64,000 bases of DNA from a virus, in IMG/VR virus record IMGVR_UViG_3300010885_050982, positions 1 through 64,000 of that record; one strand, given 5' to 3'. The notes under the pieces are model-generated. The model had not been told where the DNA came from. It made no database searches and saw nothing but the letters and a program-made list of their open reading frames with translations. The translations under genes were made by a program, and so were the position numbers. Below, one piece after another: positions 5,290 to 60,937 of this stretch; position 1 is the stretch's first letter, and the number at the start of each line of letters is the position of its first letter.

Positions 5290-5925
5290 ATGACGGACGA
5301 AGTTTCTGACGACGTCGCGATGCTGCGACTGGCGTGCGGTGATGTGGATTCTATCACAATTCTATTTCTCCGCTACAACGAATCTCTCGTGCGAATTCTG
5401 AACTCAAAGCTGAGAGACTTTGCGGCTGCGGAAGACGCCGCGCAAACCGCGTGGTTGCGAGTGCAAGAGTTTGCCTCAGAGTATTCGCCAAACAATCGCT
5501 TTTTTTCTTGGATCAAGAAGATCGCGATCAACTCTATGATTGATGCCAAGCGTCGCGATCGGTCACGAAAATTGACGCTCTCCGAGCCATTGGATGGGGG
5601 TTCTTTGGTCGAGTTGATTGCCGATGATACAATTGATCCGATTGAAAATATGATCACACACGAGATCGCAGAGCGAATTGAATCGCTACTCCCGACGATA
5701 CCAGAAGATCAGCAGACGGTATTCACTCTGCATGTGTTCTCTGGTCTGACGATGGCCGAAATTGCTAGCCGCCTGGAGGAATCCAAGGCGACAATCAAAA
5801 GTCGATATCGACTCGCAAAACGCAAGTTGCTTGGCGAATACAGTCGTAAACGGGCGTCTGGAGATAACGGAAATGGCGAAAGTCAATCGGTCGTACGAGA
5901 AAACGATGCGAGATGCGTATCTTAA
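5290..5925 (+). CDS. ECF-family RNA polymerase sigma factor
   Basis: Region 2 (AEDAAQTAWLRV..F.SW..KIAIN..ID..RR) and region 4 HTH (IPEDQQTVF.L....GLT..EIA..L..S..TIKSR..LAKRKL); GAGG SD. Confidence 0.9.
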   Translation: MTDEVSDDVAMLRLACGDVDSITILFLRYNESLVRILNSKLRDFAAAEDAAQTAWLRVQEFASEYSPNNRFFSWIKKIAINSMIDAKRRDRSRKLTLSEPLDGGSLVELIADDTIDPIENMITHEIAERIESLLPTIPEDQQTVFTLHVFSGLTMAEIASRLEESKATIKSRYRLAKRKLLGEYSRKRASGDNGNGESQSVVRENDARCVS

Positions 5926-21077: not shown

Positions 21078-21104
21078 TGATCCAGTCAGTGAGATTCAGC
21101 GTTA
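21078..21104 (+). promoter_or_regulatory. TGATCC-N16-CGTTA promoter motif
   Basis: Immediately after terL stop, upstream of AAGGAG-ATG 21146. Confidence 0.65.
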
Positions 21105-22901
21105 CGGATAATGACAACGAACACAAAGTCAACAAGGAGAGAATCATGAGATACGAAGTAACGATGGAAGACGGATGGAAAGTGCGGTTAAATGCAGATT
21201 CTGAAATGAACGCGAAATCAAAAGCTGAGCAAATGAATCGGTTTGGATACAAGGCCGTGTCTGCGGTCCAGTGCGAAGATGTGAAGGTGTCACAATGAGC
21301 GAGATTACCCTCAAGGTGACTGTGCCAGTTCTCGAAGAACTGGCGAAACGAGACGGAGGATTCGTTGTTCAGCTTTCGCATGCAGCGGCGAAAGAGATTG
21401 GACAAAAATACGGGGATGCAATCCTCCAATCGGCAATCGTAAAAGGTGCGTTGGATCGTCTCGAAAAGGCAATCTTTGCTGCTCAGACTGAAGCGGGAAC
21501 TCAACTCGAAAACAAGATCGGCGAATGGGACAACAGCCGTAACACTGGGTATAGACTGCGGGCTGACGTTGTCACTTACATCGAACGGAGTTTTGAGAAG
21601 ATCATTTCCGACCGCTTCAACAAGTGGATTGAATCGAATGACGTTGGCGCGATGCTTGATAAAGCTGCCAGCGTTTATGTTGAGCGAAAGCTGAAAGAGA
21701 TCATGCAAAAACAACTCGGCGATTTCCTTCGGAAATAGCGCAACATGACTGACGCGCTCCCAAGGGCCAGTGGCGAATGTATTTGCGGAAAGTGCGGTCA
21801 GGCTTATTTCTCGCATCCGATGGAATGGCGGAAAGTCGGATACGGCAACGTGCCGTTTCTGAATGTGTTGTGTGACGGAACTCTCGTAAAACTGTGAGAC
21901 GAAATGCAAATAGTTGTAGACCAGCACGAAATGCCGACCGGGTACACGACCGTCACGCAATATGAAGACGCGAATGTTCGAGTTTGCATGGGCGGTGGTC
22001 AGCAAAAGGTTTTCTCTGTTGAGATGAAGGCGCTAAGCCTGCAAATCATCGGCGGAGAGTCGTTCAAAAAATTCGTGGAGGACGCGACCGACCCAGCCTC
22101 GATGGCGATTCTGTATGTCGCCCAAGAGCCGAGTCGCGTTTTCGGGGACATGAAGATGATTTCGAAGATCATCATGGAGTGCCTGTCGAAGCGGATGCGG
22201 TACGCAAAAGAATCCGGTCGAAGGGACAAGGCACGCGAGATTCGAGAAGCATTGGGTATCGATGATTGAATTTGTTGTTTGGGTTTTGCTGGTTGTGGCC
22301 GGTGTCCAAGTCACCGAATTTATCGCGGACTGGATCTGCGAATTCTTCAAAAAGACAAAATAGGGTATCTGGCATGTTCGTAGTCTTGTTTCGAAACGAC
22401 CCTGCCGCCCAAATTAGAATGGACACGTTCGGGGCGTATGCCGATGCGGACAAGTTCGCGTACGAGTATCTTTCGACCTGTGGCGAACGGGCGACAGCGA
22501 TTATACTGAAGTCCGTCGACAGTCGTGACGCGCCAGGTTCCAGGGAACAGCCACGATTGCATGGCAGTGTTGGGAATGCCGCAGTACAGCCGTGAGTCTT
22601 TTAACAGGAAGCTGAAATGGAATCGAAACGAAAAGCCGAACTGGAGCGAAAGTATTGCTCAGCCAACCTTCCGCAAGAAATCGACATTGAGGCCGCATCG
22701 GACGACGTCAACGAGATCCTCGACGCATTGCCAATATCTGAGCGAAACGACGCGATGCGGCGGAAGTACGCCAACAAGGCGACCGGGCGGATGGTGTTCT
22801 GGATCGCCGCCCAGGACGTCGACACGCTCCTGATGGATGTCGTGCCGATTGACCGGCGAATGGAAAATCCAGCGACAATTCCGCCGGACGAAGAAAAAGA
22901 T

Positions 22902-36124: not shown

Positions 36125-36165
36125 ACGATCGCGCAGATGGCAACTTATTTGTGGATCAAGAATCA

Positions 36166-44337: not shown

Positions 44338-47115
44338 ATGACGATCGATACAGAAATCGCAAAACGTATTCAGGCGGCAAGGGTTGCGTACGATCATCAG
44401 CGTGAACTGTATGCGGGTCCGACACGGTGGATTACGGTCGGCGCGGTCGATCATCACGGCGGCACTCACGTCGAGATTGACGGACAAGGCAACATTTCCA
44501 AAGGTCCTTCCGGGATGAAGGGCAGTAATATTGCAAACCTGAAGAAGCCAGCATCAGTGGGGATTCCCGGACATCGACCGCCATCGAATGTGGGGATTCC
44601 TGGACATCGACCGCCATCGAATGTGGGGATTCCCGGACATCGACCGCCATCGAATGTGGGGATTCCTGGACATCGACCGCCATCGAATGTTGGAATGCCT
44701 GGCATGCGACCACCCAACCAAGACGGAATTCCAGGTCATAGGCCACCGTCCGGGCAGTCGATGCCGGGGAATCGAAATGCGGTTCCACCACAGCAGGCGC
44801 AGCCAGCCGGGCAGAATCCGCAAGAGAAGCCAATTCCAGGCGAACCCGCCCCTTTGAAGCAAGCGGTGGAGCAACTTGGAGCGCAGCAGCAACCGACGAC
44901 GCCACCGCCACCGGGACGACTGTATTCGCCGAACCCAGCGTTTGGAGAAGCGGCAAGAGTCGGGGTTCCCGGCAATAAAACTCCTCCATTGCCGCCGCTT
45001 GAATACTTCAGACTGCCAAACCTGAACCCAGAAGAACGTGCAGTCGAAAAGGGTTTTATGGATCAGTACCAGTCCGATCCTGACGGCCAGGCCGATGCGA
45101 TGATCCAAGCGATGGCAAAAGGCATGGGCGACGGTCCAAACATTTTCGCAACCGACGAGGCGAAAGGCTTGGTCAAGGAATGGAAGGGGACAAAAGTCCC
45201 TGAAATGGGGCCGGATGGAAAGCAAGCTGTCGACAAGGATGGGAATCCGAAATGGGATCTCAGTCCTGAAACAAAAGAGTATCGATCAAAGTACAACACG
45301 GCGCTTCACCAGACAGCGAACGCATTGGCGAAGCGAGCGTTCTTGAAATACCTCGATACCGTTGTTGCAAACGGTCCACCGGAAAAGAGAAACATTCTCG
45401 TTACTGCTGGTGGAGTTGCCTGTCACGGTAGAGGCACTCCTGTCGTGATGTTCGACGGAACCCTCAAGAATGTCGAAGATGTCGTTGAGGGCGATAAACT
45501 AATGGGTCCAGATTCAACTGAACGAACTGTAATGCTGACGCATTCAGGTCGCGACATGCTTTACAACGTAACTCCGCATCGTGGCGACTCGTTTACGGCG
45601 AATGGTTCTCACGTTTTGGCGATTCACGCTCAGTTGCGACGAAAAGTGAATGGCGTCGAGATTCCGTATTCTGGCAAGATCACGATTACTGTTGACGACT
45701 ATCTTGCGAAAAGCGGTCGATTCAAGGCGAATTGCTATTTGTATCGAAGAGGGATTGAGTTTGCCGAGTCTCGTGTTCCGCTTGATCCATACTTCTTGGG
45801 ATTGTGGCTTGGGGATGGAACGCATTGCCTGCCAGCGGTCACGTCTGCCGATCCAGAAATCGCGGAGTTCATGCAGCAGTTCACTCGCAAGCAACCACGA
45901 ATGAAGCTGATGGTTCACGCAAAGCCGGACAATGCCGCATCCGTGTATCAAATGTCGTATCTGGATTCGACGCCACAGAAAGGCGATGGATACCGAAAAG
46001 GGTGTCGCCCAAATCCAATCACGGCAAGACTGAAGGAGGCGGGTGTTTTAAGAAACAAACACATTCCTCAACAGTATTTAGCCAACTCCAGCTCCGTGAG
46101 GCTTCAATTGCTTGCTGGGTTGCTAGATTCAGATGGGTCGTACAATGCTGACCGGAAATCGTTTGAGATTACCACCAAAATCGAGCGTATGGCGAAAGAG
46201 ATTCAGTTCCTTGCCAGATCAATTGGATTCCAAGCGTCGATCAATGAGAAGATCGTGAGAAATAATTGGACCGGGAAGTCAGGCGTCTATTTCCGTCTTC
46301 ACATCGGCGGAAACGATCTTGAATTGATTCCGACAAAGATCCTGAGAAAGCAGGCGGAGTCAAGACCAGCAGAGCGAACAGACGGAAGGGTGTCTCGCGA
46401 CGTTCGGCACTCAAGTTTCAGGGTCGATCCAATCGGAGAAGATGAGTTCTTCGGTTTCACGCTGAATAAAGATCATCTGTACTTGCTTGGCGACTTTACG
46501 GTTACCCACAATTCAGGCAAGGGGTTCGCGCTTGAGAATGTTGACCAGACGAAGAGCTTGCAAAAAATGGCTGGTGCTGTGTGGGACACTGCCGGAGAGC
46601 AGAACAGCACCGAACTCGGATGGGTCGCCGAAGAGTGCAAGAAACGTGGACTGAAGATGCACGCCGTATTCGTTCACTCCAAGCCAAGCGAGACATGGGA
46701 AAACCCGGAGCGAGGTGTGATCGAGCGAGCCAATAAAAAGGGCCGCATGGTCGACGCCAGAGCGTTCGCGGACTCTTACACGTATGGCGCGCAGAACTTC
46801 CACAAGTTTTCCCAGAAGTACGCGAACGACCCTAACGTTCACGTTACCGTTCTCGACAACACTCGGCCACCGGTGCCAGATCTGGACGAAAACGGAGTTC
46901 AGAAGATCGACAAAAAGGGAAAGCCAGCCAAAAAGCCGGACGTCGTCGCGATCCCGTCTGTCCCGCAAGAAATGTTGTCGATGGACCCGGATGCATTGTA
47001 CGCTCATTGCATCGAAGCACTGGCAAAATTCCCAGCCTCAGATGCCGTCAAGCAGGGCGGTTCCGCAGGTACAAGAATTTGGCCGGAAACGCTGACGGGC
47101 GGTCGAAAACAGTGA
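44338..47115 (+). CDS. Polyvalent protein: leader, Pro-rich repeats and zeta-toxin-like P-loop kinase, intein-containing
   Basis: Spliced Walker A ILVTAGGVA|SGKG; VWDT, AVFVH..P...ERA...GRMV....F..SY zeta-like motifs. Confidence 0.8.
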   Translation: MTIDTEIAKRIQAARVAYDHQRELYAGPTRWITVGAVDHHGGTHVEIDGQGNISKGPSGMKGSNIANLKKPASVGIPGHRPPSNVGIPGHRPPSNVGIPGHRPPSNVGIPGHRPPSNVGMPGMRPPNQDGIPGHRPPSGQSMPGNRNAVPPQQAQPAGQNPQEKPIPGEPAPLKQAVEQLGAQQQPTTPPPPGRLYSPNPAFGEAARVGVPGNKTPPLPPLEYFRLPNLNPEERAVEKGFMDQYQSDPDGQADAMIQAMAKGMGDGPNIFATDEAKGLVKEWKGTKVPEMGPDGKQAVDKDGNPKWDLSPETKEYRSKYNTALHQTANALAKRAFLKYLDTVVANGPPEKRNILVTAGGVACHGRGTPVVMFDGTLKNVEDVVEGDKLMGPDSTERTVMLTHSGRDMLYNVTPHRGDSFTANGSHVLAIHAQLRRKVNGVEIPYSGKITITVDDYLAKSGRFKANCYLYRRGIEFAESRVPLDPYFLGLWLGDGTHCLPAVTSADPEIAEFMQQFTRKQPRMKLMVHAKPDNAASVYQMSYLDSTPQKGDGYRKGCRPNPITARLKEAGVLRNKHIPQQYLANSSSVRLQLLAGLLDSDGSYNADRKSFEITTKIERMAKEIQFLARSIGFQASINEKIVRNNWTGKSGVYFRLHIGGNDLELIPTKILRKQAESRPAERTDGRVSRDVRHSSFRVDPIGEDEFFGFTLNKDHLYLLGDFTVTHNSGKGFALENVDQTKSLQKMAGAVWDTAGEQNSTELGWVAEECKKRGLKMHAVFVHSKPSETWENPERGVIERANKKGRMVDARAFADSYTYGAQNFHKFSQKYANDPNVHVTVLDNTRPPVPDLDENGVQKIDKKGKPAKKPDVVAIPSVPQEMLSMDPDALYAHCIEALAKFPASDAVKQGGSAGTRIWPETLTGGRKQ
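44557..44754 (+). repeat. 33-bp coding tandem repeat (VGIPGHRPPSN): 4 near-perfect and 2 degenerate units
   Basis: Units at 44557, 44590, 44623, 44656 (Pro codon alternates CCC/CCT), then 44689 and 44722. Confidence 0.9.
45421..46512 (+). mobile_element. Intein (364 aa) with in-frame LAGLIDADG homing endonuclease, inserted in the kinase P-loop
   Basis: CHGRGTPVVMFDG start; LGLWLGDG and LLAGLLDSDG motifs; ends FTVTHN with +1 Ser. Confidence 0.95.
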
Positions 47116-47139
47116 TCCAACCGTTCTTCAGAGACGTTT
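47113..47139 (+). promoter_or_regulatory. TGATCC-N16-CGTTT promoter motif (TGA is the stop of the zeta-like gene)
   Basis: Directly upstream of GAGGA-ATG 47181. Confidence 0.6.
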
Positions 47140-47180
47140 AGTCTTACGTGAGAACGAAACCCATAAGAAAAGAGGAAGTT

Positions 47181-47420
47181 ATGTCAGTTGGAACCATGCA
47201 AGGGCCTCCAGCGTACAAGTTCCCGGAAGCGCAAGCCCAAGCTGAAGCGATTATGTCAAATTTGTCCCAGAGTGACGACGAAATGGATGCCGTTGAAGAG
47301 CGAAAGCACGCTCGGGACGTTGCTCGGGCAGAGGGTGGCGACAGCGGCCCCCAGATTGACCCTGAAAAGTCCAATCGAATCGACAAAGCGAAAACATCGT
47401 TCGACGTACGAGGTTTCTGA
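47181..47420 (+). CDS. Small acidic hypothetical protein
   Basis: GAGGA SD; TGATG coupling to the next gene. Confidence 0.6.
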   Translation: MSVGTMQGPPAYKFPEAQAQAEAIMSNLSQSDDEMDAVEERKHARDVARAEGGDSGPQIDPEKSNRIDKAKTSFDVRGF

Positions 47421-48712
47421 TGCTCAATATTCGCGACAGGATTGCGTCTGCCATCGAGCGATACCAGAAAGAACACTGGATCACGCTTCGGGGGACTCAC
47501 GTACTGATCGACGAAGATGGGGAGATCCTAAAGGGTCCTCCGGCGCTCAAGGGTATTCAACTCGGGAAACCGGTCCCGAAGCGAAAGGCAGACGAATCAG
47601 AAAAGCAGTGGCTGAAACGTATTGCTCCTGATTTGCCAGCCCCAAGGCGACTTCCTGAAAATCATAGCGATTATTTCAACATGGATCGGGCGGACGCGAC
47701 GGTATCGATCGGTCGACTGAAAAGTACGAAGACCGACGCCGAAAACGAAAAAGGCGGCGGGAACGCTCCAAAGTTCATGGATCTGTCGCGACGTGGATTG
47801 ACCGGGAAACGTGATCCGATCACGGTTCGACCGAACGACAGCGGCGGCTATGACGTTGTCGACGGGAATGGAACATTCACTGGTGCGAAACATTACGGTT
47901 GGAAAACACTTCCAGTTCAGATCGAGAAGAAGCTTCCCGAAGAAAATCGGAAGCCATTCTTTACCGATGAGGAAATGAGTTTACCGAAAGAAAGACTTCA
48001 GCCGGTCGCGCAAGATGCTGGTTATGACGTGTTGGCTGCAAAAGCGAAAGTTGCCGATCATCAGTTGCGAACACTATTGGACTTCGGAAAGGGCCTTGGC
48101 GCGCAGCTTGGGTATGAGACCATCCTTCCGGGGGTCATGAAGTTGGATGAAATTGTAGAGCGGTGCAAGAAGCCAGGAGGTATCGTCTGGATTGGCGGCT
48201 TGAAGCCGGAAGCATCAGCGAAACGAAAAGTCCGGGACGATTACAATGGTCACTGGAATCGGCTTTTGGATATTGCGAGGGCAACTGTCGTCGTTGACGC
48301 GATTGACGATGTGCATAAGGTCATCGACAAAGCGAGGGCGATGGGGGCAAAATTGGCTCGTCGGCCAAAAGACCACATAACTAATCCAATACCCGATACG
48401 CATTACCGAGATATCAACATGAATCTGGAGATGCCAAACGGGATGATCGTGGAAATGCAAATCAATCTGAAACCGATGATCATCGCGAAGAAAACTGGGC
48501 ACTTGGACTATGAAATCATTCGGGAAATATCAGGAAAACTTCACGCAGAAGGGGACCGAGAACCGACAGCGAGCGAGAAGTCGCGTCTTCAGCAGGCTCT
48601 CAACGCAAACGTGAAGCTCTACGATGCCGCTTGGGAAAAATGCTTGGGATCGAAAGAGAAATACTCTCGACGTTGCGAACTGGCTGAGTCGAGATTTCGG
48701 AAGATGTTTTGA
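47420..48712 (+). CDS. Polyvalent protein: leader, ParB-like domain and RelA/SpoT-like nucleotidyltransferase
   Basis: DPI.V.....GY.VVDGN (ParB-like); LK...SA.RK, L.DI.R..VV, YRD.N, EMQI, GH..YE..R (RelA/SpoT-like). Confidence 0.8.
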   Translation: MLNIRDRIASAIERYQKEHWITLRGTHVLIDEDGEILKGPPALKGIQLGKPVPKRKADESEKQWLKRIAPDLPAPRRLPENHSDYFNMDRADATVSIGRLKSTKTDAENEKGGGNAPKFMDLSRRGLTGKRDPITVRPNDSGGYDVVDGNGTFTGAKHYGWKTLPVQIEKKLPEENRKPFFTDEEMSLPKERLQPVAQDAGYDVLAAKAKVADHQLRTLLDFGKGLGAQLGYETILPGVMKLDEIVERCKKPGGIVWIGGLKPEASAKRKVRDDYNGHWNRLLDIARATVVVDAIDDVHKVIDKARAMGAKLARRPKDHITNPIPDTHYRDINMNLEMPNGMIVEMQINLKPMIIAKKTGHLDYEIIREISGKLHAEGDREPTASEKSRLQQALNANVKLYDAAWEKCLGSKEKYSRRCELAESRFRKMF

Positions 48713-49153: not shown

Positions 49154-52100
49154 TCATTTGACCTCCTGCAAGCGCTGCAATGCAGCGAGAATTCGCGCGT
49201 TGCGCTCTCGGTGGTCGAATTTCTGTCGATGTTCCAGGTACGACAGAAATCGAGACTCGTGATCGCGAGCGACTATGTCGCGACATTCTTGGGCGATCGG
49301 GGCGAGCACAAGCCCGACAAAACAGCAAGCGAGAACGTAGAGTATTTCTTTCATGATTTCATTCCGTATCTTTTAAGTGTTCCGCATCACAGGCGTCGTC
49401 AATTTCGGCGTGAGTCATGTTCGGGTATCGTGTGTGAGTTGGACATCGGTATCCGAACCCCATTTCATGGGACCACCCTGCTTTGAGTATCTCGCCTTTT
49501 GCGACTCCGTTAAACCAGGCCCGATTGTCGCGGAACTCAGCACAGGCGCAGCATGCAGGTTCATCGCAGGATATTATGGCAACTAAGTCAATTCTGAATC
49601 CCATCTCGGAAGCATCCTTCATTCATTACGTTTGAATTGCCAAATTCCGGGATATTGAGACTCAATATATTCTATTCTGTCAACCACCCAATTGGCTCTA
49701 TCTTCCGACGTGGCCGACAATGCTTGAGGAATATCCTCGGACAACACTACGCGTCCGTCGCGCGTCGTGAATTTAATTGATATGAACTGGTCGCGACTGT
49801 CGCGTCCGATTTGAACAATCCCGCCGCCGTCCATGAAACGCCCCTCTCGTGAGACCATTACTTTCAAACATTGGCAGAGTAAAGATCAGTAACTGACGAC
49901 TCGACCTGCTTGGGCGCGAACCGCGCCAAGAACTCGGCAACGGACCCATAGGGCCGACGTCGATTGATCACGCCATACGCTTTGATCCCGTAAACTCGCC
50001 GGGTTTCCATGTCGACCATGTAGTATCCCGACCCGTTGTAGTCGATATTGACGTATTTCCGGCCTCGCTTCAGGATGACTTTCGTTCCCCAGTGAGCATC
50101 CATTGGGCAGTCGTCGTGTTTTTGTCGTTCGATCGCTCGGGCCAACGCAACCAGTTCCGCGTCGAATTCGTCAGCCGTTGGGGCGACATGCTTCGGGACC
50201 GGGTCGGTTTCCTTGCGAGGAGCCTCGAAGAACTCGTATTCGCTCTCCAAGGGAAAATGGCTGAACTCGTAAGACTTGACGATCCATCCGCTATACCGAT
50301 GGTCGCCAATCCAGTTGCCCTCACCGAACGAGTAGTTGTCCCGGTGCTCGTGATCTTTTCCGTAGTGAGCAGTGGGAGGGAACTTGCTTGCGGCGTCCAA
50401 CATCTGTTTGAACGATTCACGCGAGCCATACCCGAAGCCGATCACGACTTCGCGAACAGTCCTGCCGTATGACAACTGGATGATGTTTGTTGATGCTATT
50501 CATCGATCCGGACCACAAATAAAGATACTTGCGACCGATTTTCGCGACTCTCACTGTTTCGATGATCGGTTCCGGGTTGCTAGACAACTTTCTTGTGCTT
50601 CTGCGATACGATTGATCCACCTCGCGGTACAGCACGTCACCAACCTTGATCGGTGGCAGTTCAAGCGGCGTTTTCGTCATGGCGTTTCCTTAGCAGGGGA
50701 AGTCGTTTTGAAACAATATCAGCAGCAACAATGTTCGCCGGGCAACCAAACAAATCCGCTAACAAGCAAGTGGAAACGAGACCAGCCACCTCGGTACTGT
50801 CAAGGCAATCAGGTTCGTCGTTTAACGCAATCCACTCAACGCCGAACCAATAAGACGGCGTCTTGTACTTTCGCTTTCGGTCGTACACCTTCAAATCGGC
50901 TCCGCTTTTCGACATGCCAGATTTCCTTTAACAGCAGGGGAATTGAGTTGGAATTAAAATTCGGACAAGATCGTTTTCAGGACCAAGTCGAAAAGAGATC
51001 GCATCCAAGCAAGGTCCGTCAGTTGCCAGTGAGATATCCAATGATCGTATCGCAAGATCTCATCATCTTTGGGGACGCGAACTTCAACTCCTTACAATTC
51101 GATCGCATGCCCATGCTTCGCTGCAAGTTCGCGACCCGCATCAGTGAAGTCGACGTACATGTCCTTGGCGCGACCCTTTCCTTCATTGTCGTGGATTACG
51201 ATGAGCCCCTTCTTGACAAGGTCCGACAGGTTTCCACGATGCTCTTTCGTTGGAGCGATGTTCCCGCAGGATACCCAGGGGGTTCCTGACCAATTACCGG
51301 CGTCGGCGGCATACATCAGGAAAGTTGCCAGCGATGCGTCGGTCAATTCGAGTGATTTGTCTGACATTTTTCGTCTCCTCAATTTGCTGCTTTTCTCATC
51401 CCCCACGTTATTGCAAACGCACGTCAGCACGGAAGGATCACGAACAGGGACAAGAATTTTTGAGAATTCATGAAATTGTTTTTTCAATTTTCTTTCCAAT
51501 TTCCGTGATCCTTTCCGGCCTCGGTGCGTTTGCCCTTATGTGGGGACAATAAAAACGAAAACGAGAAGCGGAGAGAATCATGAAACGTAAAGAGATGTCG
51601 CTTCGAGACTATCACAACTCTCTGAAAAACGGAGCGGAGTACTTGTGGGTGTGCGGCATCGGTTATCCAACAGGATGCGATTTCCGTAACAACCTTGAAG
51701 AGTCGGAGTCGATGGAATACTGCGACCTGAACGAGATTATCGATCAGCTTGGGTTGTGGGACCTGAATGGGATTGTTGACCAAAATAACCGCTGGGAGTG
51801 GGACGGGGCCGGAAACCCAGTTGACCATCAAGGAAATTCGATACTCAACATCAAGGCTATGCCTTAGGGAGCGGGATCATGAAGGAACGATGGGAAGTCT
51901 ACGTCAGCGGCGGGAAGCATCAACTTGAAATCGAGTCGGAACGAGACGAGCACTCCGTCCGAATCGAAGCGGCGGGAATGATCGGTGTCGACGTCATGAA
52001 AGTGTCTGTCGCGATGATCGCCTACTGCAATCGCAAGATGGACGGAAAACGGGTCGACGGTGTTGTTGTTCCGCGAAGATACTCCAAGGAATCGCTTGCG

Positions 52101-52388
52101 AACGGGCGAATGTTTCAACTCGGGAACGACTGGGAGGTTATCCCCAGTGGAGACGGCGGCTGGCATGTGGCGAAGACCGTAGAAAAGAAGGGTTACGTCT
52201 ACGAATCGAAAGACAGCGAGAACAACATTACGTCTCGGGTGTACAAGAAAGATAACGGGGCGTATTCAGTTCGCACGATCGACGGCGATTCAGGACAACC
52301 GATCGAAATCCGCAACGGGTATCGATCGGAAGACGACGCCAAGAGACACGCAAACAAAATGACTGGGAAAGGAAGTGAAACCAGATGA
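49154..52388. other. Divergently transcribed accessory block (minus: 49154-49354, 49359-49622, 49619-49867, 49864-50475, 50661-50915, 51092-51367; plus: 51580-51867, 51879-52388)
   Basis: Small coupled ORFs diverging from twin promoters at 51415-51531. Confidence 0.65.
51415..51531. promoter_or_regulatory. Divergent TGATCC-N15-CGTTT promoters (51415-51440 minus; 51506-51531 plus)
   Basis: Both read CGTGATCCTT..GTGCGTTTGC; each is followed by a GGAG SD and ATG. Confidence 0.72.
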
Positions 52389-52598
52389 GCCATTCACCGG
52401 GGCCGTGGAAGATAGGTCAAAAGTTTTCTGGCAATATGGATGAAATCGAACAGCCAGACGGGCGAGCTATTGCTGTTGTATGGACGAGGATACTCGACCT
52501 ACTGTCGCGCTAATTTTTGAGATTCTGGCAAAAAACCTAATTTGATATGCTCGCCGGTCAATACCGAGCGAGCATTTTCATTTTTCGGACGATCAGCC

Positions 52599-54209
52599 AT
52601 GCTTTCCAATGCCGAACGAATCGAACAGGCAAAAGATCGATACAAAAAGCACATTGAAAGCGGTCCAGGACAGAGGGATTTGTTCACGGGCGAGACTCGG
52701 AAGTCGGCGAAAACGCAAGGGAAATTCCACTGGATCACGCTAAAGTCTCACGATGGAGAACCGACAACTCACGTCGAGATCAGCGACGATGGCAAGGTTC
52801 GCAAGGGTCCTGCGGGACTGACCGGGAAATCGCTTTTCGATCACGAATCGAAATCGCCGGATACTGAGAAACCGAAAATCGTCAAAGTTCCTGCTCGGCC
52901 TGCTGTTCATCATGGTACGGCACGACGGGAACCGGCGGCACCGGCGTCTCATTTACGGCATTTGCCAGACGGTCGAGTTGTTGGACCGACCGTTATGTCG
53001 ATCGACGATTTGCACGTCGACCCCGAGCGATTCCAGTACAAGGTCAGTGGGATTAACAAGGAAACCGGGACCAATTCCGAGATTCGCGACAACACGATCT
53101 ACAACCCCGAGTTGGGCGGACAGTTGCTGGTCTGGAAAGATCCTGCTGACGGCAAGACGTACGTCGTCAACGGTCACCACCGCGCAGAGTTGGCGAAAAA
53201 ATCTCCACGGTCGAGCGAAATCGGAGAGTTCAACGGGTCGCATCCCGTCTACTACATCAACGCCAGGGACCACGTGGAGGCCCGCGCGCACGGAGCGTTG
53301 GCCAATATTGCCGAGGGACGCGGGACAGCGACTGACGCGGCGAAATTCATGCGAGACATGGGCGTCGGTCCCGAACATTTCAAAAAGCACGGAATCAGCC
53401 ACAAGGGCGCTCTGGCTGCGGCGGCGATGGAGTTGAAAAAGCTTTCACCGATGATCTTCCAGAAGTTGACGAATGGGATGATTTCGGAAGGCCGGGCGGC
53501 GATGATCGGAAAGCACCTTCCGAACGAAGACGCCCAGGATCAGCTCTACCGATGGATCGAGAAACACGAAAAGCAACCCGGCGACTATTCCGACCGGAAA
53601 GTTGCCGAAATGGCAAAGTCGACGGCGGCAATGAAACCGAAGCAAGCCGGTATGGGTGGCGGACTGCTCGGGGACTGGTTCGATGAGTTTCCGATCGAAC
53701 AAAGAGCCGACATCGCCGACCATGTTGCTCGAACCCTGTCAGGCGAAACGAAATCGCTTCGAGACGCATCGTCAGAACGTCGCAAGGGAGTGATCGAAGC
53801 CGAAGGGGACAATAAGATTGACGCGGTCACCAATCGTGCCAGGGCGATGAAATCGGCGGCGGCACTGGAAGAATTCGATCACCGCGTGAACGCTCAAGGA
53901 CATCCGATCGCACAGCTTTTAGACCAATATGCAGAAAGGCTCGCAAGTGAACCAAAAAAACGAACAGCCATCCTCAAAGAAGCCCTCGCAGAAGTCAGGA
54001 AACTCGCTGAAGCTGGATCGGGAGGGAAAACCGATGACGGAGCAGCAGATCGAACACATGTTCGGCCACTTCAAGGAGATGGTCCGGGACGGCGCGATTC
54101 AGAACAGCCAGCTTCAAATGGAGTGAGTCGGTTTTCCAGGCTGGAGGCGGCAGAGGCTAATTATCGGTATTATTGCGAGAGAGTCGCCGGTAAGAATTCT
54201 CAGTCTTAG
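52599..54209 (+). CDS. Polyvalent protein: leader and ParB-like domain
   Basis: ERIEQAKDRYK, GQRDLF, HWITL..THVEI.DDG.V.KGPAGL; DP.RFQYK, LLVW.D..DGK.YVVNGHHR. Confidence 0.78.
   Translation: MLSNAERIEQAKDRYKKHIESGPGQRDLFTGETRKSAKTQGKFHWITLKSHDGEPTTHVEISDDGKVRKGPAGLTGKSLFDHESKSPDTEKPKIVKVPARPAVHHGTARREPAAPASHLRHLPDGRVVGPTVMSIDDLHVDPERFQYKVSGINKETGTNSEIRDNTIYNPELGGQLLVWKDPADGKTYVVNGHHRAELAKKSPRSSEIGEFNGSHPVYYINARDHVEARAHGALANIAEGRGTATDAAKFMRDMGVGPEHFKKHGISHKGALAAAAMELKKLSPMIFQKLTNGMISEGRAAMIGKHLPNEDAQDQLYRWIEKHEKQPGDYSDRKVAEMAKSTAAMKPKQAGMGGGLLGDWFDEFPIEQRADIADHVARTLSGETKSLRDASSERRKGVIEAEGDNKIDAVTNRARAMKSAAALEEFDHRVNAQGHPIAQLLDQYAERLASEPKKRTAILKEALAEVRKLAEAGSGGKTDDGAADRTHVRPLQGDGPGRRDSEQPASNGVSRFSRLEAAEANYRYYCERVAGKNSQS
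54034..54126 (+). CDS. Nested out-of-frame 30-aa ORF within the C-terminal linker
   Basis: GGAGG SD at 54021-54025; MTEQQIEHMFGHFKEMVRDG looks amphipathic-helical; the host frame here is a G/D/R linker. Confidence 0.4.
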   Translation: MTEQQIEHMFGHFKEMVRDGAIQNSQLQME

Positions 54210-54215
54210 AAAATC
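54194..54215. promoter_or_regulatory. Degenerate copy 4 of the TTCTAAG-N-CTTAGAAAAT palindrome
   Basis: Right arm CTTAGAAAATC perfect and contains the gene's TAG stop; left arm GAATTCTCAG. Confidence 0.45.
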
Positions 54216-54233
54216 AAGCTTTGGAGCAAGATC

Positions 54234-54419
54234 GTGAGTTTCGACAAGAAATACCCTAAAAGGAAAGATCATCGACGGCAGTACGTCTCCGGTTCGCGTC
54301 GATTCGACCGTACTTGCCGTACTGGAGGATCATGCCCGCACTGCATTGGAAACCGGCTCCACAACAGTCGAGTACGGTCGGAAAAGGCGTCAATTTCCAT
54401 GTATCTGAGGGAAGACTGA
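54234..54419 (+). CDS. Small basic Cys-containing phage protein
   Basis: GGAG SD; D..CR..G.C..C..NRLH. Confidence 0.6.
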   Translation: MSFDKKYPKRKDHRRQYVSGSRRFDRTCRTGGSCPHCIGNRLHNSRVRSEKASISMYLRED

Positions 54420-54420
54420 G

Positions 54421-54732
54421 ATGCGATTGAGCGAGTTGGAGCCAAGGTGGATTCACCCCAGCATGTTCGTTTTCAAGTGTCCCTGTTGCCGTAATGTCTG
54501 GTTGACATGCAAGAGCAGTCCGATGACCCGGCAGGAAACATGGAATATCTTGAGAAGTGGACTCGGCGAGGACTGGAATCAAATTGTCGTTCCCCCGAGC
54601 CCGGAAACGCAATGGTCAATTTCCAATAACGTCCCAAGAGGATTCGCGGATAACATTTCGGTTACGCCCTCGATCGACGCCAGCGCATCCGGTCATTGGC
54701 ATGGGTTCATCACCAATGGGGAAATCAAGTGA
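54421..54732 (+). CDS. DUF6527-like protein
   Basis: F.CPCC ... SVTPSI ... HWHGFITNG motif. Confidence 0.6.
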   Translation: MRLSELEPRWIHPSMFVFKCPCCRNVWLTCKSSPMTRQETWNILRSGLGEDWNQIVVPPSPETQWSISNNVPRGFADNISVTPSIDASASGHWHGFITNGEIK

Positions 54733-55847
54733 TGTCTATTGCTGAGCGAATCCAGGTGGCCAAAACACGATTCTTGTCGTGGCCAGACCAGTACGCAAAG
54801 TTCAAAGTTGCGCATGGCCAAAAATCGTTGTGGGGCGAAGAGGATGAGGTAAAGCATCCCCGTAACGAAATCGGCGAATTCGCAAAAAAAGACTCTCCAG
54901 CAGTGATCCGAGCGGATAAGGGTAACGTTTCTCCTATTGGTGACGAAAACAAACCTAACGGAGAAAAGAAAATGGAAGCGAAAGAATTCACTGGAAATGG
55001 CGGCGCGAAAGCAGTTGTAAAACCAGCAAGCGACGGCAACGGACATTCAGCCGTTATTGAATGGAAAGCTGGAAACAGCCTTCATCGCGACATCGCTGGA
55101 AAGGATTTCAAGGGGCGGCTTGTTCGGTTCGGTGCCGATGGCGTGCAGCACGTGATGACCGGGCATGGTGAAGTCATGCTGGATATCGGTATCGTTAAGA
55201 TCGAAGGTAAATCGCGGGCGATGAAGGTTCGCGTTTCCGACAAGCCGGAGCTGCAAGCTGCGGCGGAAGTATTGCTGCCGGAATACAAAGCTGGGTGGGA
55301 AAAACACCTAAAGACACAAGCGGATCTTGAGCAGCAAGAAAAACAACGCCGCGAAGCTACGAGAAGCGATTCGCACAAGATCGCTCCGATTTACCATGAC
55401 GGCGAATACCTGAGCGGATATCAAGTATACGGCGATGAAGCCGAAATACTGAAGGATCTTGGGTTGGCAAAGCATGTCAGCGGGTGGGGTTACGAAGTCT
55501 CGCAAAAGGTCATCAAAGATCTTGGAAAAGAGTTCACCGTTGAGCAAGCCAAGGCGTACGCCAAGCCTGCAATGGACGCCAAAGCCGAATCTGACGCCAC
55601 GCGAGAAGAGGCAAACAAAGCTAAACGTGAAGTCATCGAAAATAAGAAGTCGGAAATGGTTGACGCCGGAAAGTCGTTCGCGACTCCAAAGCAGATCGCG
55701 GTGATCGAACGAGCAAGACGAGACTGGTTCGATATTTTCGACGGCGCGGGCGGCTATGGAATGAACGGGCCAACCGACGAACAGTTGGAGTTGATGACCA
55801 AAGACGAAGCGTCGAGCCTGATTTCAGAAATCTTGGCTTCACGATAA
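54732..55847 (+). CDS. Polyvalent protein: leader fused to a cargo domain of unknown function
   Basis: AERIQVAKTRF..QYAK, GQKSLW, E.KHPRN..GEF; C-terminal ATPKQI...TK.EAS.LI motif. Confidence 0.75.
   Translation: MSIAERIQVAKTRFLSWPDQYAKFKVAHGQKSLWGEEDEVKHPRNEIGEFAKKDSPAVIRADKGNVSPIGDENKPNGEKKMEAKEFTGNGGAKAVVKPASDGNGHSAVIEWKAGNSLHRDIAGKDFKGRLVRFGADGVQHVMTGHGEVMLDIGIVKIEGKSRAMKVRVSDKPELQAAAEVLLPEYKAGWEKHLKTQADLEQQEKQRREATRSDSHKIAPIYHDGEYLSGYQVYGDEAEILKDLGLAKHVSGWGYEVSQKVIKDLGKEFTVEQAKAYAKPAMDAKAESDATREEANKAKREVIENKKSEMVDAGKSFATPKQIAVIERARRDWFDIFDGAGGYGMNGPTDEQLELMTKDEASSLISEILASR
54904..54930 (+). promoter_or_regulatory. Intragenic TGATCC-N16-CGTTT promoter motif
   Basis: Followed by GGAG (54960) and in-frame ATG 54972. 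Confidence 0.55.
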
Positions 55848-55862
55848 TCGAGGACGCCTTGC

Positions 55863-58800
55863 ATGGAAACGACCGAACGAATCGCCAGAGCGATGGAACG
55901 ATACTCGAAGGAATTCGAGTCGAAGCATCCCCGCGATCAGGATGGGATGTTTGCTGAAAAAATAGAGTCGACAGCAGCGATGGCAGACGGGGCATTCAAT
56001 CCATCCTGGAGCGTCCGTAAGCATGGTCGCATGGACTGCTTGATGCCAGTCAACCACGACAGCAAGCCGTTTGTTGCAGAGCTGCAAAGAATCAGCAGTT
56101 CGCTATATGATCTCGATAAAGACGATCCTGAGCAAAAGTTCGCAATCGACATCGAGAATCGCATAGGACAGGCTGTCCACGAATTCACATTCAGGAACGT
56201 TCACACGGAATACGGAAACGAAAAGTCGGCATTTGGCGTCACTGGGACTGGATCTGCCACGGAGGTCGTCAAGAATGCTGCGGCATGCTTAATCAAGGCG
56301 ATCAAGTTGTATTCGCACGCTCTTCCTGTAATCTACTTCACTGCCGCAGAGAGAAGCCGAATTGGCTTGTATTCGCTGCTTTCTAAACGGGCTGAAAAAG
56401 TGACTGGATATATTGGATACCGCGTTGATCTTGGAAATTCCGATCATGCGCTGTTTGCTCTTGTCGACCCAAGCAAGGCGACGGAGTTCGAGTCTGTAAT
56501 CAGACGCCAAAATGCTAAAGTTGAGCGATACCAGAAATGGGACGAGTCGAAGCACGTTCGCGACGAAGTCGGAAAGTTCGCAAATAAATCGTCATCAGGT
56601 TCGATCAGCGAATCCGACAAAGTTGCGATGCCGTTCGATCCATTCCCGAAAACATTCAAGGAAATGAAGAACCGGGATTATGTCGACGTATGGCATGGAA
56701 CAACATTACAGCGGCTTGAGAAGATTATCGAAAGCGGTAAGACGAAAACTGGCGAGCGAGGTCAGTTTTTGGTGTCCCCAAGATTCCGCCATGCAAGCCA
56801 ATATCCAGAGTTCCCTGGAGAAGACGAAGATCCAATCGTCGTCTCGATTCGAGTTCCAGTGAGCAATCTCCTTCCAGACGAAAATGATCAACCGGGAATT
56901 AGCCTTGAGCAATCGCTTTTTGGCAATCACTTCGGGCTTGCTGCTGATGTCGATGGAGGAATAGACATCTCTCAGATTCGCGGAGTCTACGGTGAGTCTG
57001 TCGATGATGCATGGACAGTTGCTGAAACTGGCAGGCATGTTGCCGAATCAATTCTCAAAAACAAGTCGAATCGGCTCGATCCTGTCGAGTCTGCTCGCAT
57101 TGATTACGCCGAAAACGGCACGAAATCAAAAGCGTTTAAGGCATGGTTCGGCGACTCGAAGGTTGTCGATTCCGATGGCGAGCCACAAGAAACGCACGGG
57201 ACCGCGAAACCGGTCTACCACGGGACCCCGCATGACTTCGAAGCTTTCGACAGCAGTACGCAAGACTGGTCGTGCGAGGTCGGGAAAGGGTTCTACTTCA
57301 CGGACAACGAAGAACTGGCGAGATCAGAATATTCGAAGGGCGGAAAAGTCATCGCCGCGTACCTGAAGATTGACAAGCCTTTGGATTTGGACAAACCAAT
57401 CTCCGACTCTGATCGTGACGCGATCATGGAAGCGGGCAAGAAAAAATTCAATCATGTCGACTGGAACGCTCCCAGCGGACTGACCGGGGACGGCATTCAC
57501 AGGTGGATCGACAATCAGCTCGGAACAGCATTCGTCAACGACGTCATTGAGGCTGCTGGTTTCGATGGGATCACTCACATTGCGAGAAATAAACTGGGGG
57601 GTCGCGATAAAAAGAAGATGGATGACTTCGGTCGCGTCTGGATTGCGTTTGCCCCCTCGCAAGTGAAAAGTACTGACAATCGAGGGACGTTTGACCCGAA
57701 AGACAATCGCATGGCATATTCCAAGAGAATTGCGAATGCTATCGAGATGTATTCGTTCGACCCAAGTCAACCACGGGACAAGTCTGGCCAATGGACAGCC
57801 TACGACATCGGCCACAAATCGGGGATGAACGGGTTTGTCAGCAAAAGAGAAAGGCAAAAAGCCCTTCGCGAAAACGGGCACGATATTGCTGATTCAAAAG
57901 TGATGCAAGAGTTCAATCGTGGGCACAGCGATGCTATAAGCCAAAAGCAGAACGAAAGGGAGCAGGCGAAGAATCTGCGACTCGCCCCATTCATAGAGGC
58001 TGCGAGGAAAAACTGGAAGCCTGGAGATTTCGACATTGACGATAGCGATACGCAAGCATGGGAGGCGAAATTAAAATCGATCGCTGAGGAAGATGCAGAC
58101 AATGCAGACAATGAAATGGATGCTGAGAACGAAAAACAGCAACAAATCAATCGAGACATGAAAAAACACCTTGTTTCCGAAGAAGTTACATCAAGAGCCA
58201 GAAAGATTGTTGGCGATTGGGCGAAAGATCATGGATGGGAAGTATCGAACGAACATTCGTCTCGAACGAATTCGCATTACTGCACCCTTGCGAAAAGAAA
58301 CGGAGACGAGGAGGAATCGTTTACTGTTCGCGTTTCGGATCATCACGCACCGCATGGAAGCGGCTTCAATGAGGCTAAGCAGGAGTACCATGAGCCATCT
58401 GATGTGAATATTGTTCCTGAACTACCACCTTATGATGACGAATCAGACTGGAAAGAGTTTGACGTTAAGTCTGGCCCGGATTGGTCAAGATTCACCGTTG
58501 ACACCACTGAACTTGATAAGATGGCGAGAGGCGATGCCACAGACAGGCAGTCCTATTCCAAGAGAATCCAATCCGTCCTTGAACGGTACTCGAAAAAACC
58601 AGGCGAGAAGAAAGAGCACAAATTCAGTTCGACTCAAATCGACGTTCCACCAGAGATCGCAGAGAAAATCAGGAAACTTGCCGAGCGAATCCCGGACAAT
58701 CAGCTTGCCGACGATGGTCGCGAAACAGACTTCCACATTACGGCGCTTTTCGGCCTGCACACGAACGATCCTGACGACGTGAAGGAAGTTCTGTACGGCC

Positions 58801-60326
58801 AGCGTCCAGTAACGATCGTCTTTGGGAAGACGTCAATCTTCTCGAATGCCGATGCGGACGTCCTGAAACTCGAGATACTGGGCGACGGTATTCGGGAATT
58901 GAACAAGCGGCTGAAGAAAGGATGCGAACACACAGAAACTCACCCGACGTACCAGCCGCATTGTACGGTCGCCTATCTCAAGCCGGGGAAAGGCCACTTC
59001 TGGGTCGGCGGCGAAATGTTCGATCAATTGAAGTTCGATGCTGATGAAGTACAGTTCTCGAATAAGCAGCGGGAAAAGACGCCGATCTATTTGGTTTCAG
59101 AATCGAAGGAAATCGACGGTCGGATAATTCGAGCGAAAGAGTTGTACGCCAAGCATAAACCAGCAGCAGGGCAATCTTCGTTCAACTGGGATGAATCAAG
59201 AGTCACAAGGGATGATGAAGGGAAATTTGAGCACTGGAACACCGGCGAAGTGTCGGCATCGGCGCGTCCGCTTATCGTCGATTTTGAACGACAAAATGAT
59301 CGAGTGGAATTCAAACCACCGTCGCAATGGACAGATTCCGATAAGAGAAAAGCGAAACGACTGATCGCAGGTGCAAAAGCGGCAATGGAAGATCCACATT
59401 CAACAGGTCCATCGCTGTCGCATCCGATCCATACCAAGGAGTCTGCCGAAAAAGCAATGTGGAAAGCGTTGGAGGTCAGGAATTTTGGGACAGCCATGAG
59501 CAATCGATACGACGGCGATGATGGCGGACTGGAGAGCCTTGGACGCAAAATGCTTCAAGCTGCCAAGGACGAGATGGAATATGGTTATGAGAAACGTCAG
59601 TTGGCGACACTGAAGAAGCCAAGGCAGAAAACAGGATTTGACCGGGAACTGGAAATCATGTTTGCAGCAGACAACTACTCAAGAGCCAAGCAGATCGTCG
59701 AAATCTACGGGAAGAAACCCGCAGGCGGACAACGGTCAATGTTTGACGAAGAGGATCATCCACGGGACCCGGCAAGCGGTGAGTTCGTCGAAAAGGATGG
59801 CGGCGCGGCCGCGAACGCATGGAAACCAGAGAATCACGTCAAAATCGCAGCCGATTCGATCGAGCGACTGCGCGGCGGAGACGTGTATCGGCTTCTCGAT
59901 TCGTCCCCGCCGGGAAACATGAATCAGATGGCTGAGTACATCCGTAAAAGCAGGCCGGACCTCGCCGGGCATGTTCAGGAAGCGACGGACGACATCAACG
60001 AAGATCGCGGAACGAAACCGCCAGAGCCGAAGCCAATGGAGCGTGTCGGCGTGCCAGGCATGCAAAAGAACCTGTTCGACGAAGAGCCGAGCGGACAAAA
60101 GCAGTTGTTCGACTACATCGCACCCAGCAAGAAAGACGTCAAGAAAGCGAAACAGGAAGACTTGCTTGCTGGCGTCAACTCTCGACTGAAGGAGCAACTT
60201 AAAAACAAGGAAACTCTGTCACCGGCGGACCTGCTCACGAACGTAACTCATGAGCCTCTCGCCGGGCAGCGTGATTTATTCACAAAGCGATTCGATATCG
60301 CTAAAGAACGGTTCAATCGGAAGTAA
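55863..60326 (+). CDS. Polyvalent protein with ~6 modules, including two ADP-ribosyltransferase-like domains and an Acb1-like 2H phosphoesterase
   Basis: VWHGTT..LVSP..HA.QY (ART-like); FKAWFGDSKVVD..YHGT..GFYFTD..GFDGI..QVKS..N.GTFD (ART-PolyVal-like); HIT..FG and PHCTVAY (2H). Confidence 0.85.
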   Translation: METTERIARAMERYSKEFESKHPRDQDGMFAEKIESTAAMADGAFNPSWSVRKHGRMDCLMPVNHDSKPFVAELQRISSSLYDLDKDDPEQKFAIDIENRIGQAVHEFTFRNVHTEYGNEKSAFGVTGTGSATEVVKNAAACLIKAIKLYSHALPVIYFTAAERSRIGLYSLLSKRAEKVTGYIGYRVDLGNSDHALFALVDPSKATEFESVIRRQNAKVERYQKWDESKHVRDEVGKFANKSSSGSISESDKVAMPFDPFPKTFKEMKNRDYVDVWHGTTLQRLEKIIESGKTKTGERGQFLVSPRFRHASQYPEFPGEDEDPIVVSIRVPVSNLLPDENDQPGISLEQSLFGNHFGLAADVDGGIDISQIRGVYGESVDDAWTVAETGRHVAESILKNKSNRLDPVESARIDYAENGTKSKAFKAWFGDSKVVDSDGEPQETHGTAKPVYHGTPHDFEAFDSSTQDWSCEVGKGFYFTDNEELARSEYSKGGKVIAAYLKIDKPLDLDKPISDSDRDAIMEAGKKKFNHVDWNAPSGLTGDGIHRWIDNQLGTAFVNDVIEAAGFDGITHIARNKLGGRDKKKMDDFGRVWIAFAPSQVKSTDNRGTFDPKDNRMAYSKRIANAIEMYSFDPSQPRDKSGQWTAYDIGHKSGMNGFVSKRERQKALRENGHDIADSKVMQEFNRGHSDAISQKQNEREQAKNLRLAPFIEAARKNWKPGDFDIDDSDTQAWEAKLKSIAEEDADNADNEMDAENEKQQQINRDMKKHLVSEEVTSRARKIVGDWAKDHGWEVSNEHSSRTNSHYCTLAKRNGDEEESFTVRVSDHHAPHGSGFNEAKQEYHEPSDVNIVPELPPYDDESDWKEFDVKSGPDWSRFTVDTTELDKMARGDATDRQSYSKRIQSVLERYSKKPGEKKEHKFSSTQIDVPPEIAEKIRKLAERIPDNQLADDGRETDFHITALFGLHTNDPDDVKEVLYGQRPVTIVFGKTSIFSNADADVLKLEILGDGIRELNKRLKKGCEHTETHPTYQPHCTVAYLKPGKGHFWVGGEMFDQLKFDADEVQFSNKQREKTPIYLVSESKEIDGRIIRAKELYAKHKPAAGQSSFNWDESRVTRDDEGKFEHWNTGEVSASARPLIVDFERQNDRVEFKPPSQWTDSDKRKAKRLIAGAKAAMEDPHSTGPSLSHPIHTKESAEKAMWKALEVRNFGTAMSNRYDGDDGGLESLGRKMLQAAKDEMEYGYEKRQLATLKKPRQKTGFDRELEIMFAADNYSRAKQIVEIYGKKPAGGQRSMFDEEDHPRDPASGEFVEKDGGAAANAWKPENHVKIAADSIERLRGGDVYRLLDSSPPGNMNQMAEYIRKSRPDLAGHVQEATDDINEDRGTKPPEPKPMERVGVPGMQKNLFDEEPSGQKQLFDYIAPSKKDVKKAKQEDLLAGVNSRLKEQLKNKETLSPADLLTNVTHEPLAGQRDLFTKRFDIAKERFNRK
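58620..59090 (+). other. 2H phosphoesterase domain (Acb1/T4 gp57B-like)
   Basis: Two HxT motifs at 58734 and 58959 with DGRE..H and Y.PH.T.AY..PG context. Confidence 0.75.
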
Positions 60327-60937
60327 AATACTTTTGGTGCAAAATACGCGGCAATCCATCCAAAATCATCACGCGATAACCTGGATCTCCCTGTCGCGCC
60401 AGTTCCGCGCAACGAGTTCGGCAGACAGCGAATTCTCCGTCGTTGCGTGTACTCGGAGCGTCTTCAACGGGGGTCCCCGCCGGAAATGTGCGATGGTACT
60501 CGGTCCCGTCTTCGTGGCGGTCAATGAAGACGAGGTTTTGGATCAGTTTTGGCATTCTCCATCCAGTAAAAAAGCGTCAGGAAGCTTCTCGATGCTCAAT
60601 GACGTCATTGATCGTCATCCAGTACAGTGAATTCGCGCGACATCCAGTATTCACGTACCAGACGGTCACCAATTCGATACGTGACAAAGTGTCCTTTGGT
60701 GGATTCGTAGTGGCCAAGATGGTAGCCGATTATTCCGGTCAGGTGCCTGCATCGAGTTCGCGTCATGTACAATTGGCAAGACGTTTCGTTGTACCTTGGG
60801 AATGGCGAGTCATCTGGAGAATCCGGTTGTTGCCGTGGCCAAACAGCCATCGCCCCGAAAACCAGACCGATGATGCATGCGTATGCACCGAAAGCGACAC
60901 GGGTGAAGGTTTTGATTTGCACATAATCCCTTTTCAT
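60313..60937 (-). other. Two small minus-strand ORFs (60313-60555; 60605-60937 with TM segment)
   Basis: ORFs convergent with the polyvalent cluster. Confidence 0.5.

Follow-up and report, generated by a model that had tools for sequence, protein, structure and literature searches.

We analysed the first 64 kb (hereafter the window) of the 103,387-bp virus record IMGVR_UViG_3300010885_050982 (IMG/VR), for which CheckV gives a completeness of 82%. Towards its end lies P0001, an open reading frame (ORF) in which an N-terminal leader module precedes a recruited accessory protein (the cargo), and in which the linker that ends the leader module carries promoter-like elements, a putative ribosome-binding site (RBS) and an in-frame ATG, Met81 (the nested cassette; Table 1). 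An earlier note on this DNA had pointed to these elements as a complete promoter, RBS and start codon, laid out as in the stand-alone accessory genes that begin at 21146 and 51580. Direct reading of the letters finds TGATCC-N16-CGTTT, GGAG and the in-frame ATG where that note had placed them, and the layout does equal that of the two stand-alone genes: the −10-like element lies 42 nucleotides (nt) from the ATG in the nested cassette, and 42 nt and 49 nt in the two reference genes. The word “complete” proved slightly overstated, because the core, the spacer and the downstream part are present but the A/T-rich stretch and the TT that stand 5′ of TGATCC in the intergenic members are missing.

The cassette has to be seen against a family of similar sites in the same genome. 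The promoter pattern of the earlier note returns 7 matches where 0.44 are expected, and in the window the core TGATCC-N16-CGTT is found at 13 sites where shuffled sequence gives 0.29. Over the whole 103-kb genome the count is 17, against a mean of 0.43 per other spacing (averaged over spacings 0 to 79, leaving out 14–17). Most of the family sites precede genes and several form divergent pairs; common to them are a 5′ A/T-rich stretch, TT before TGATCC, an A after it and a T-rich segment before CGTT. We take the TGATCC-N15/16-CGTT layout to be that of an extracytoplasmic function (ECF) sigma promoter, comparable to the SigW/SigX/SigM consensus of B. subtilis. The window encodes an ECF-type sigma factor of its own (Table 1), which is the likely reader of these promoters.

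At the nucleotide level, the nested cassette is by all appearances a real member of this promoter-to-ATG family. The 24 nt that follow the internal CGTT score 6.4 bits in a leave-one-out comparison, the highest value among 21 sites and the 99.9th percentile across the genome, and the 9-mer CCTATTGGT recurs, equally far from the −10, in a genuine promoter, 71898(−), which precedes a Shine–Dalgarno (SD) sequence and an ATG. The A-rich segment leading up to the SD of the nested cassette also aligns with the leader of the 30789(−) promoter (z = 4.4). In-frame internal ATGs after GGAG or GAGG number 14 per 22,008 codons (6.4e-4 per codon). Given the encoded residues and the phage's own codon usage, the codons chosen for the core (V-I-R…N-V) have p = 0.015 and those chosen for the 9-mer (P-I-G) have p = 0.010, jointly 1.5e-4, which argues that the promoter match is no by-product of the protein sequence. 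Around Met81, the 60-nt context folds at −1.6 kcal/mol, among the least structured 0.3% of 324 internal in-frame ATGs, which average −13.7 ± 4.1. The joint chance expectation is about 1e-6 to 1e-5, from about 0.2 for the core when counted on the sense strand of genes, about 1e-3 for the likeness of the downstream 24 nt and about 1e-2 for an in-frame SD-ATG pair within 20–70 nt.

Homology then tells to which part of P0001 the cassette belongs. HMMER found P0141, a protein of 251 residues which matches residues 2–92 of P0001 and nothing else (47% identity, E 8e-19); it and its close variants, P0159 and P0160, come from Logan assemblies only. The linker alone is similar between P0001 and the P0141 family at p ≤ 0.0005 against shuffles, and after the common TGNG the P0141 family runs into an unrelated part of 160 residues. 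The codons that spell TGATCC, CGTT, the 9-mer, GGAG and ATG all fall within the shared residues 2–92; cargo homology begins at residue 107, and residues 93–106 match neither the module nor the cargo family. Since the match runs through the linker to TGNG, the cassette codons lie inside a module that is common to different cargos, and this homology assigns the cassette to the reusable leader module and not to the recruited cargo gene. The leader is also under selection as a protein, because P0141 keeps it from its first residues. Searches for further relatives of the module, word-indexed with residues 1–97 or with the module alignment, returned only P0001 and P0141, and scans of viral, metagenome and genome contigs for P0141-family DNA gave no match. 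P0001 itself was found in a second sample as P0161, with one substitution. At the joint between module and cargo (residues 87–115, 54990–55076), the similar segments TGNGGAKAVV and DGNGHSAVI stand in succession and may be a small duplication.

The residues that overlap the cassette are conserved in a distinctive pattern. V58, I59, V66, P68 and I69, the five residues whose codons fall entirely inside the −35, the −10 or the 9-mer, are all identical in P0159 and P0160; at the partly overlapped codons R is replaced by L and N by S, and both replacements can keep the base. The six residues 60–65, which cover most of the promoter spacer, are all different. Since 15 of the 37 linker columns are identical, finding all five cassette codons among them corresponds to p of about 0.007 (a hypergeometric estimate made post hoc). 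This is the pattern to be expected of a conserved promoter.

Table 1. Features of P0001, the nested cassette and the surrounding genes (positions are those of the window).
Feature	Position	Strand	Remarks
P0001, 371 codons, leader module and recruited cargo	54732..55847	+	direct reading
Leader module, residues 1–92	54732..55007	+	homologous to residues 3–93 of P0141/P0159/P0160
ERI helix	about 54741–54773	+	in leader module
GQKSLW	54816–54833	+	in leader module
HPR..G.F	54855–54881	+	in leader module; followed by polar linker ending KKM...TGNG
TGATCC, −35-like	54904..54909	+	codons V58, I59, R60
CGTT, −10-like (CGTT(T) 54926–54930)	54926..54929	+	codons N65, V66; 16 nt after TGATCC
CCTATTGGT, putative initial transcribed region element	54933..54941	+	codons P68, I69, G70
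GGAG, SD-like	54960..54963	+	8 nt before internal ATG
Internal ATG, Met81	54972..54974	+	in frame with ATG 54732; would start P0002 (291 residues)
Cargo, residues 107–371	55050..55847	+	homology search and AlphaFold2
YHDGEYLSGY/VSGWG core	about 55377–55631	+	in cargo; roughly residues 195–300
Small helical C-domain	about 55668–55844	+	in cargo
Reference cassette of stand-alone small gene	21078..21148	+	TGATCC 21078, N16, CGTT, 42 nt, SD, ATG 21146
Reference cassette of stand-alone small gene, N15 class	51506..51582	+	TGATCC 51506, CGTT, 49 nt, SD, ATG 51580
ECF-type sigma factor gene	5290..5925	+	Sigma70_r2 and r4_2 above cut-off; TIGR02937 92 bits, cut-off 42.9
Mu-type portal	34357–36099		starts same-strand gene array
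Methylase and Strawberry-notch-type (Sbno) helicase giant, DarB-like, 2708 residues	36151–44277		same strand as portal
Hint/LAGLIDADG intein-bearing ORF, 925 residues	44338–47115		same strand as portal
ParB_N and RelA/SpoT-like gene, leader-bearing	47420–48712		same strand as portal
ParB-like gene	52542–54209		same strand as portal
DUF6527-like gene	54421..54732	+	upstream of P0001; TGA stop overlaps ATG of P0001
Polyvalent-type gene, 1487 residues, ART-PolyVal and 2H phosphoesterase	55863..60326	+	same kind of leader as P0001

The other half of P0001, the cargo, is built in order of a β-rich N-domain, a long helix, the core, a second long helix and the small helical C-domain. An exhaustive HMMER search recovered 228 relatives, nearly all of them leaderless proteins of 180–260 residues with the core at about residues 50–190; from this usual stand-alone form P0001 departs by its 106 extra N-terminal residues. 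The core residues G224, E225, L227, W252, G253, G265 and F268 are present in P0001, and P0003 (254 residues) and P0004 (256 residues) share its C-terminal helical domain. At four IMG/VR loci the cargo is a stand-alone gene of 186–258 residues, which in three cases adjoins integrase-like or SNF2-helicase-like ORFs (judged by translations alone). Because the cargo relatives are nearly all leaderless and stand-alone, a fusion of the leader to an ordinary accessory gene is supported, and P0001 is on this comparison a chimera of the leader module with a normally stand-alone accessory protein. Among the nearest relatives that cover the N-domain, residue 2 of P0014 aligns with residue 107 of P0001 (BLAST, E 6e-33) and residue 4 of P0015 with residue 109 (BLAST, E 7e-29), so that Met1 of both corresponds to residue 106. 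A MAFFT alignment sets the relatives' Met1 on Met81, as if this were the ancestral start; we rejected it as an end-gap artefact, as it splits the IAGK.F match and is contradicted by BLAST.

Fused forms of the cargo were also found (P0131, P0066, P0123, P0059 and P0020), from which it follows that head-linked multi-domain proteins have taken up members of this family on several occasions. P0131 (1607 residues) combines a lambda-family portal (Pfam, residues 98–412) with HPRxxGxF-type linkers, a long tail and a YRDGE.LSG/GWG core at its end; P0066 (1854 residues) has a ParB-like part and P0123 (533 residues) an HWITL box. In P0131, then, the portal covalently carries a cargo core of the P0001 type. 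P0001 gave no match to Pfam, PHROG, NCBIfam or PADLOC. AlphaFold2 modelled residues 150–371 with a predicted local distance difference test (pLDDT) score above 90; with this cargo model Foldseek found nothing at E ≤ 0.001 in PDB and BFVD, the wide VIA-align search reached a best Z of 4.8 over the small C-terminal helical part only, and the Atlas search gave template modelling (TM) scores of 0.2–0.37 to winged-helix regulators and nothing better.

P0001 belongs to a same-strand array headed by the Mu-type portal, which links it to the portal–terminase packaging module. Six ORFs after the portal, P0001 included, open with variants of an ERI..A..RY helix, and in several genes of the array this helix is followed by GQxxLF/W and then by either an HWITL box or an HPRxxxGxF box. 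The YS.R....A..R[YF] helix with which other genes start is also carried at the C-termini of the portal and of the products of 36151–44277, 47420–48712 and 55863–60326, so that the “leader” helix occurs at C-termini and between domains as well. No terminators on the + strand were found in 51400–60700, and sigma-70-type promoters match there once where 6.3 matches are expected; the 51506 promoter is the likely driver of the transcription unit that holds P0001. The overlap between the DUF6527 stop and ATG 54732 implies coupled translation. On the other side, the 1487-residue gene opens 15 nt 3′ of P0001, with no terminator in the gap. Searches of 50,697 phage records with tblastn and blastn found no cultured relative.

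Taken together, these features suggest how the locus would work. Transcripts from the 51506 promoter would give the tagged protein of 371 residues, through coupling to the DUF6527 gene. The nested promoter, if it fires, would add transcripts starting near 54935–54940, and the open GGAG-ATG would yield a leaderless protein of 291 residues, with help from these internal transcripts. Because the gap to the next gene is so short and lacks a terminator, the internal promoter would also feed the 1487-residue gene and raise its transcription. Firing of the promoter and initiation at Met81 are what we infer from the letters of the cassette; a pair of isoforms, as the earlier note had suggested, is plausible, and the chances that the nested start does produce a tagged and a leaderless form from one gene seem to us evenly balanced, which makes this the likeliest of the readings weighed here. 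That the leader directs packaging into the head we infer from its position, from its recurrence on portal-linked genes, from the portal-fused P0131 and from the precedents of the T4 capsid-targeting sequence (CTS) and the first 30 residues of P1 DarB.

Several observations weigh against a working promoter and start. A first matrix, dominated by the upstream flank, scored the internal site at background level: the 15 nt 5′ of the internal TGATCC rank only at the 35th percentile of background, and the base after TGATCC is a G where the family has an A. Without the A/T-rich stretch and the TT in these 15 nt, the promoter may be weak or dead. The weak folding around Met81 is explained by A-rich composition alone (shuffles, z = 0.87); open RNA was rejected as a sign of selection, since shuffled sequences fold just as weakly, and the start site is accessible despite this composition effect. 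Conservation of the cassette in the P0141 family was read from residues, with conservation of the nucleotides deduced from them, and the conserved hydrophobic linker residues could also represent a peptide motif, with which the pattern is compatible. The P0141 family does have a Met between KP and TGNG, but this is shifted by 2–4 residues in a gap-dependent way, and the comparison covers two families at the level of residues only. Finally, separate timing for the short form is not indicated, because the promoter of the whole unit, 51506, has the same core motif.

If the nested start is not used, the cassette may be an inactive remnant of the module's origin, with the 371-residue protein alone made in meaningful amounts. 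The leader would then have joined just 5′ of the −35 of some gene before the P0001 and P0141 lineages split. The match to the promoter family begins exactly at TGATCC with the upstream flank absent, as at an old fusion joint, and the module is common to two families, both as this scenario would have it. An unselected relic should decay, yet the ten core bases and the 9-mer are all intact in a module that has diverged to 47% identity, and the SD spacing and the open context are also kept. We regard such a remnant of an early joining as unlikely.

The earlier note had proposed a snapshot of cargo recruitment, in which an ordinary accessory gene was fused to the leader together with its 5′ region. 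Read as the recent capture of a cargo gene that brought along its promoter, RBS and ATG, this would account for the stand-alone, leaderless cargo relatives, for a layout equal to that of the genes at 21146 and 51580, and for an upstream flank cut off at the −35. The fusion itself stands, given 228 relatives that are nearly all stand-alone, but the 5′ region, as far as sequence can tell, does not, as residues 2–92 are homologous to P0141. The cassette-bearing residues 58–92 thus have their counterpart in a family with a different cargo. The closest of the stand-alone relatives begin at a position that corresponds to residue 106 and lies 25 codons beyond Met81, and among the relatives searched none begins at MEAKEF, where that note had proposed to look for leaderless homologs, or opens with MEAKEF…TGNG. 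With the cassette in a shared module and no homolog starting there, we consider a recent capture decidedly unlikely.

Promoters within upstream coding regions are common in operons, and the internal promoter could be real and serve the 1487-residue gene, across the 15-nt gap without a terminator, with GGAG-ATG unused or trivially used. Such a role in boosting the operon would leave unexplained a whole promoter-to-ATG layout with the usual 42 nt, an in-frame ATG and an open SD, and we hold it to be very unlikely. A coincidence of a 10-base core match with purine-rich Lys/Glu codons that happen to read GGAG…ATG is all but ruled out by a joint expectation of only about 1e-6 to 1e-5 and by the codon-level p of 1.5e-4, and is highly improbable even though about 0.43 core matches are expected per genome, another core-only match lies inside an ORF at 19309 and the open RNA is a composition effect.

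Returning to a nested start that works, the leader module as a whole could be a portable two-output device, consisting of a head-targeting tag and a linker that encodes an in-frame, sigma-specific promoter, an RBS and a start codon. We put this forward tentatively, as possible but doubtful. If it were true, any cargo behind the TGNG joint would be made in a tagged, virion-loaded form and an untagged, intracellular one, and selection would maintain the device in two or more phage lineages that differ in cargo. Were the nested start to work in P0001, a single gene would supply one activity both from the virion and by new synthesis, in what would be a simple natural design for tagged/untagged pairs.

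Parts of this arrangement have clear precedents. In T4, the CTS alone is conserved among diverse internal defence proteins (PMC3012670), and residues 1–30 of DarB are enough to bring a reporter into the heads of P1 (PMC9024508). As in these two systems, proteins that are otherwise unrelated, change fast and are encoded close to head genes begin with a short conserved N-terminal sequence, and as in P1 the window encodes a DarB-like methylase–helicase giant (36151–44277). Unlike the CTS and the DarB N-terminus, the leader of P0001 is longer (about 55 residues plus a 40-residue linker) and has motifs of its own, the ERI helix, GQxxLW and HPRxxxGxF, which recur between domains of neighbouring giants; its role in packaging is here a predicted one. 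Neither PMC3012670 nor PMC9024508 describes a nested promoter or start for the CTS or DarB.

The array also resembles the polyvalent proteins of phages and conjugative elements, for which Iyer et al. 2017 (PMC5512222) predicted packaging into the head and injection; the words leader, linker and internal promoter did not turn up when the text of their paper was searched. What they have in common is an array linked to a portal, a set of ART-PolyVal, ParB-like, RelA/SpoT-like, methylase and Sbno-helicase domains, and modules that are shuffled freely, the cargo core ending large multi-domain proteins elsewhere (P0131, P0066). Unlike polyvalent proteins, P0001 has a single cargo, the arsenal being split over six leader-headed genes: it holds one recruited protein of three sub-domains without a Pfam polyvalent domain, and its neighbours carry multiple effector domains.

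Nested in-frame genes are known from phages, as in lambda C/Nu3 and T7 gene 4A/4B. As in these pairs, initiation at an in-frame ATG behind an internal SD would yield a shorter protein without the N-terminal part. Unlike them, the part omitted here would be a candidate packaging tag, the internal start has what appears to be its own sigma-specific promoter, and the putative device sits in a module common to genes with different cargo. By analogy of logic only, the locus also recalls T4 Alt versus ModA/ModB (Alt: PMC5512222), where one activity comes from the virion and from synthesis; T4 has separate genes for this, whereas here a single gene would supply both. There are thus separate precedents for head-targeting leaders on variable cargo, for polyvalent effector arrays and for nested in-frame starts. 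A leader module with its own in-frame promoter, RBS and start, common to different cargos, was not found in the literature searched, Iyer et al. included.

How new proteins enter the head-loaded counter-defence set of a phage, and how their dose and timing are controlled, is poorly known. In this respect, P0001 offers a clean case of recruitment, as its cargo occurs in more than 200 stand-alone clusters, once behind the leader here, and in other proteins as the C-terminal part of portal-fused or ParB-bearing giants. The joint between modules is visible, too, with one leader module on two unrelated cargos that meet it at TGNG. A single stretch of 70 nt, moreover, appears to be a case of dual coding, under constraint as a protein linker and as promoter, RBS and start alike.

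Some further sites of the promoter family deserve mention. A CTAT(T)GG element lies 4–12 nt after CGTT in family promoters (71898(−), 30789(−), 51506(+), 51440(−)) and is probably the start region. The three N15 copies of the window (30789(−), 51440(−), 51506(+)) have a longer consensus in common, CGTGATCCTT(T)CCG...GTGCGTTT. A TGATCC-N16-CGTT at 37955–37980 (+), whose upstream flank scores well (7.0, one of the highest values), is located inside 36151–44277 just after the methylase part; no in-frame ATG was found downstream of it within the ORF of 2708 residues, so that it was rejected as another nested start, and the site may be an internal promoter. Two core matches inside ORFs, 19309 (+) and 11987 (−), have background-like flanks on both sides and are likely chance members.

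Elsewhere in the array, the ORF at 44338–47115 contains, after its leader, a run of near-identical GIPGHRPPSNV-type repeats and then the Hint/LAGLIDADG intein; its PHROG matches to the terminase large subunit probably reflect the intein. The stop codon of this 925-residue ORF is the TGA of a TGATCC promoter (47113–47420, +). Downstream, an ORF of 75 codons begins behind an SD at ATG 47193 and overlaps at its end with ATG 47420 of the ParB/RelA-SpoT-like gene, so that this small gene and the cargo gene coupled to it at 47420 show the same arrangement as the DUF6527-like gene and P0001.

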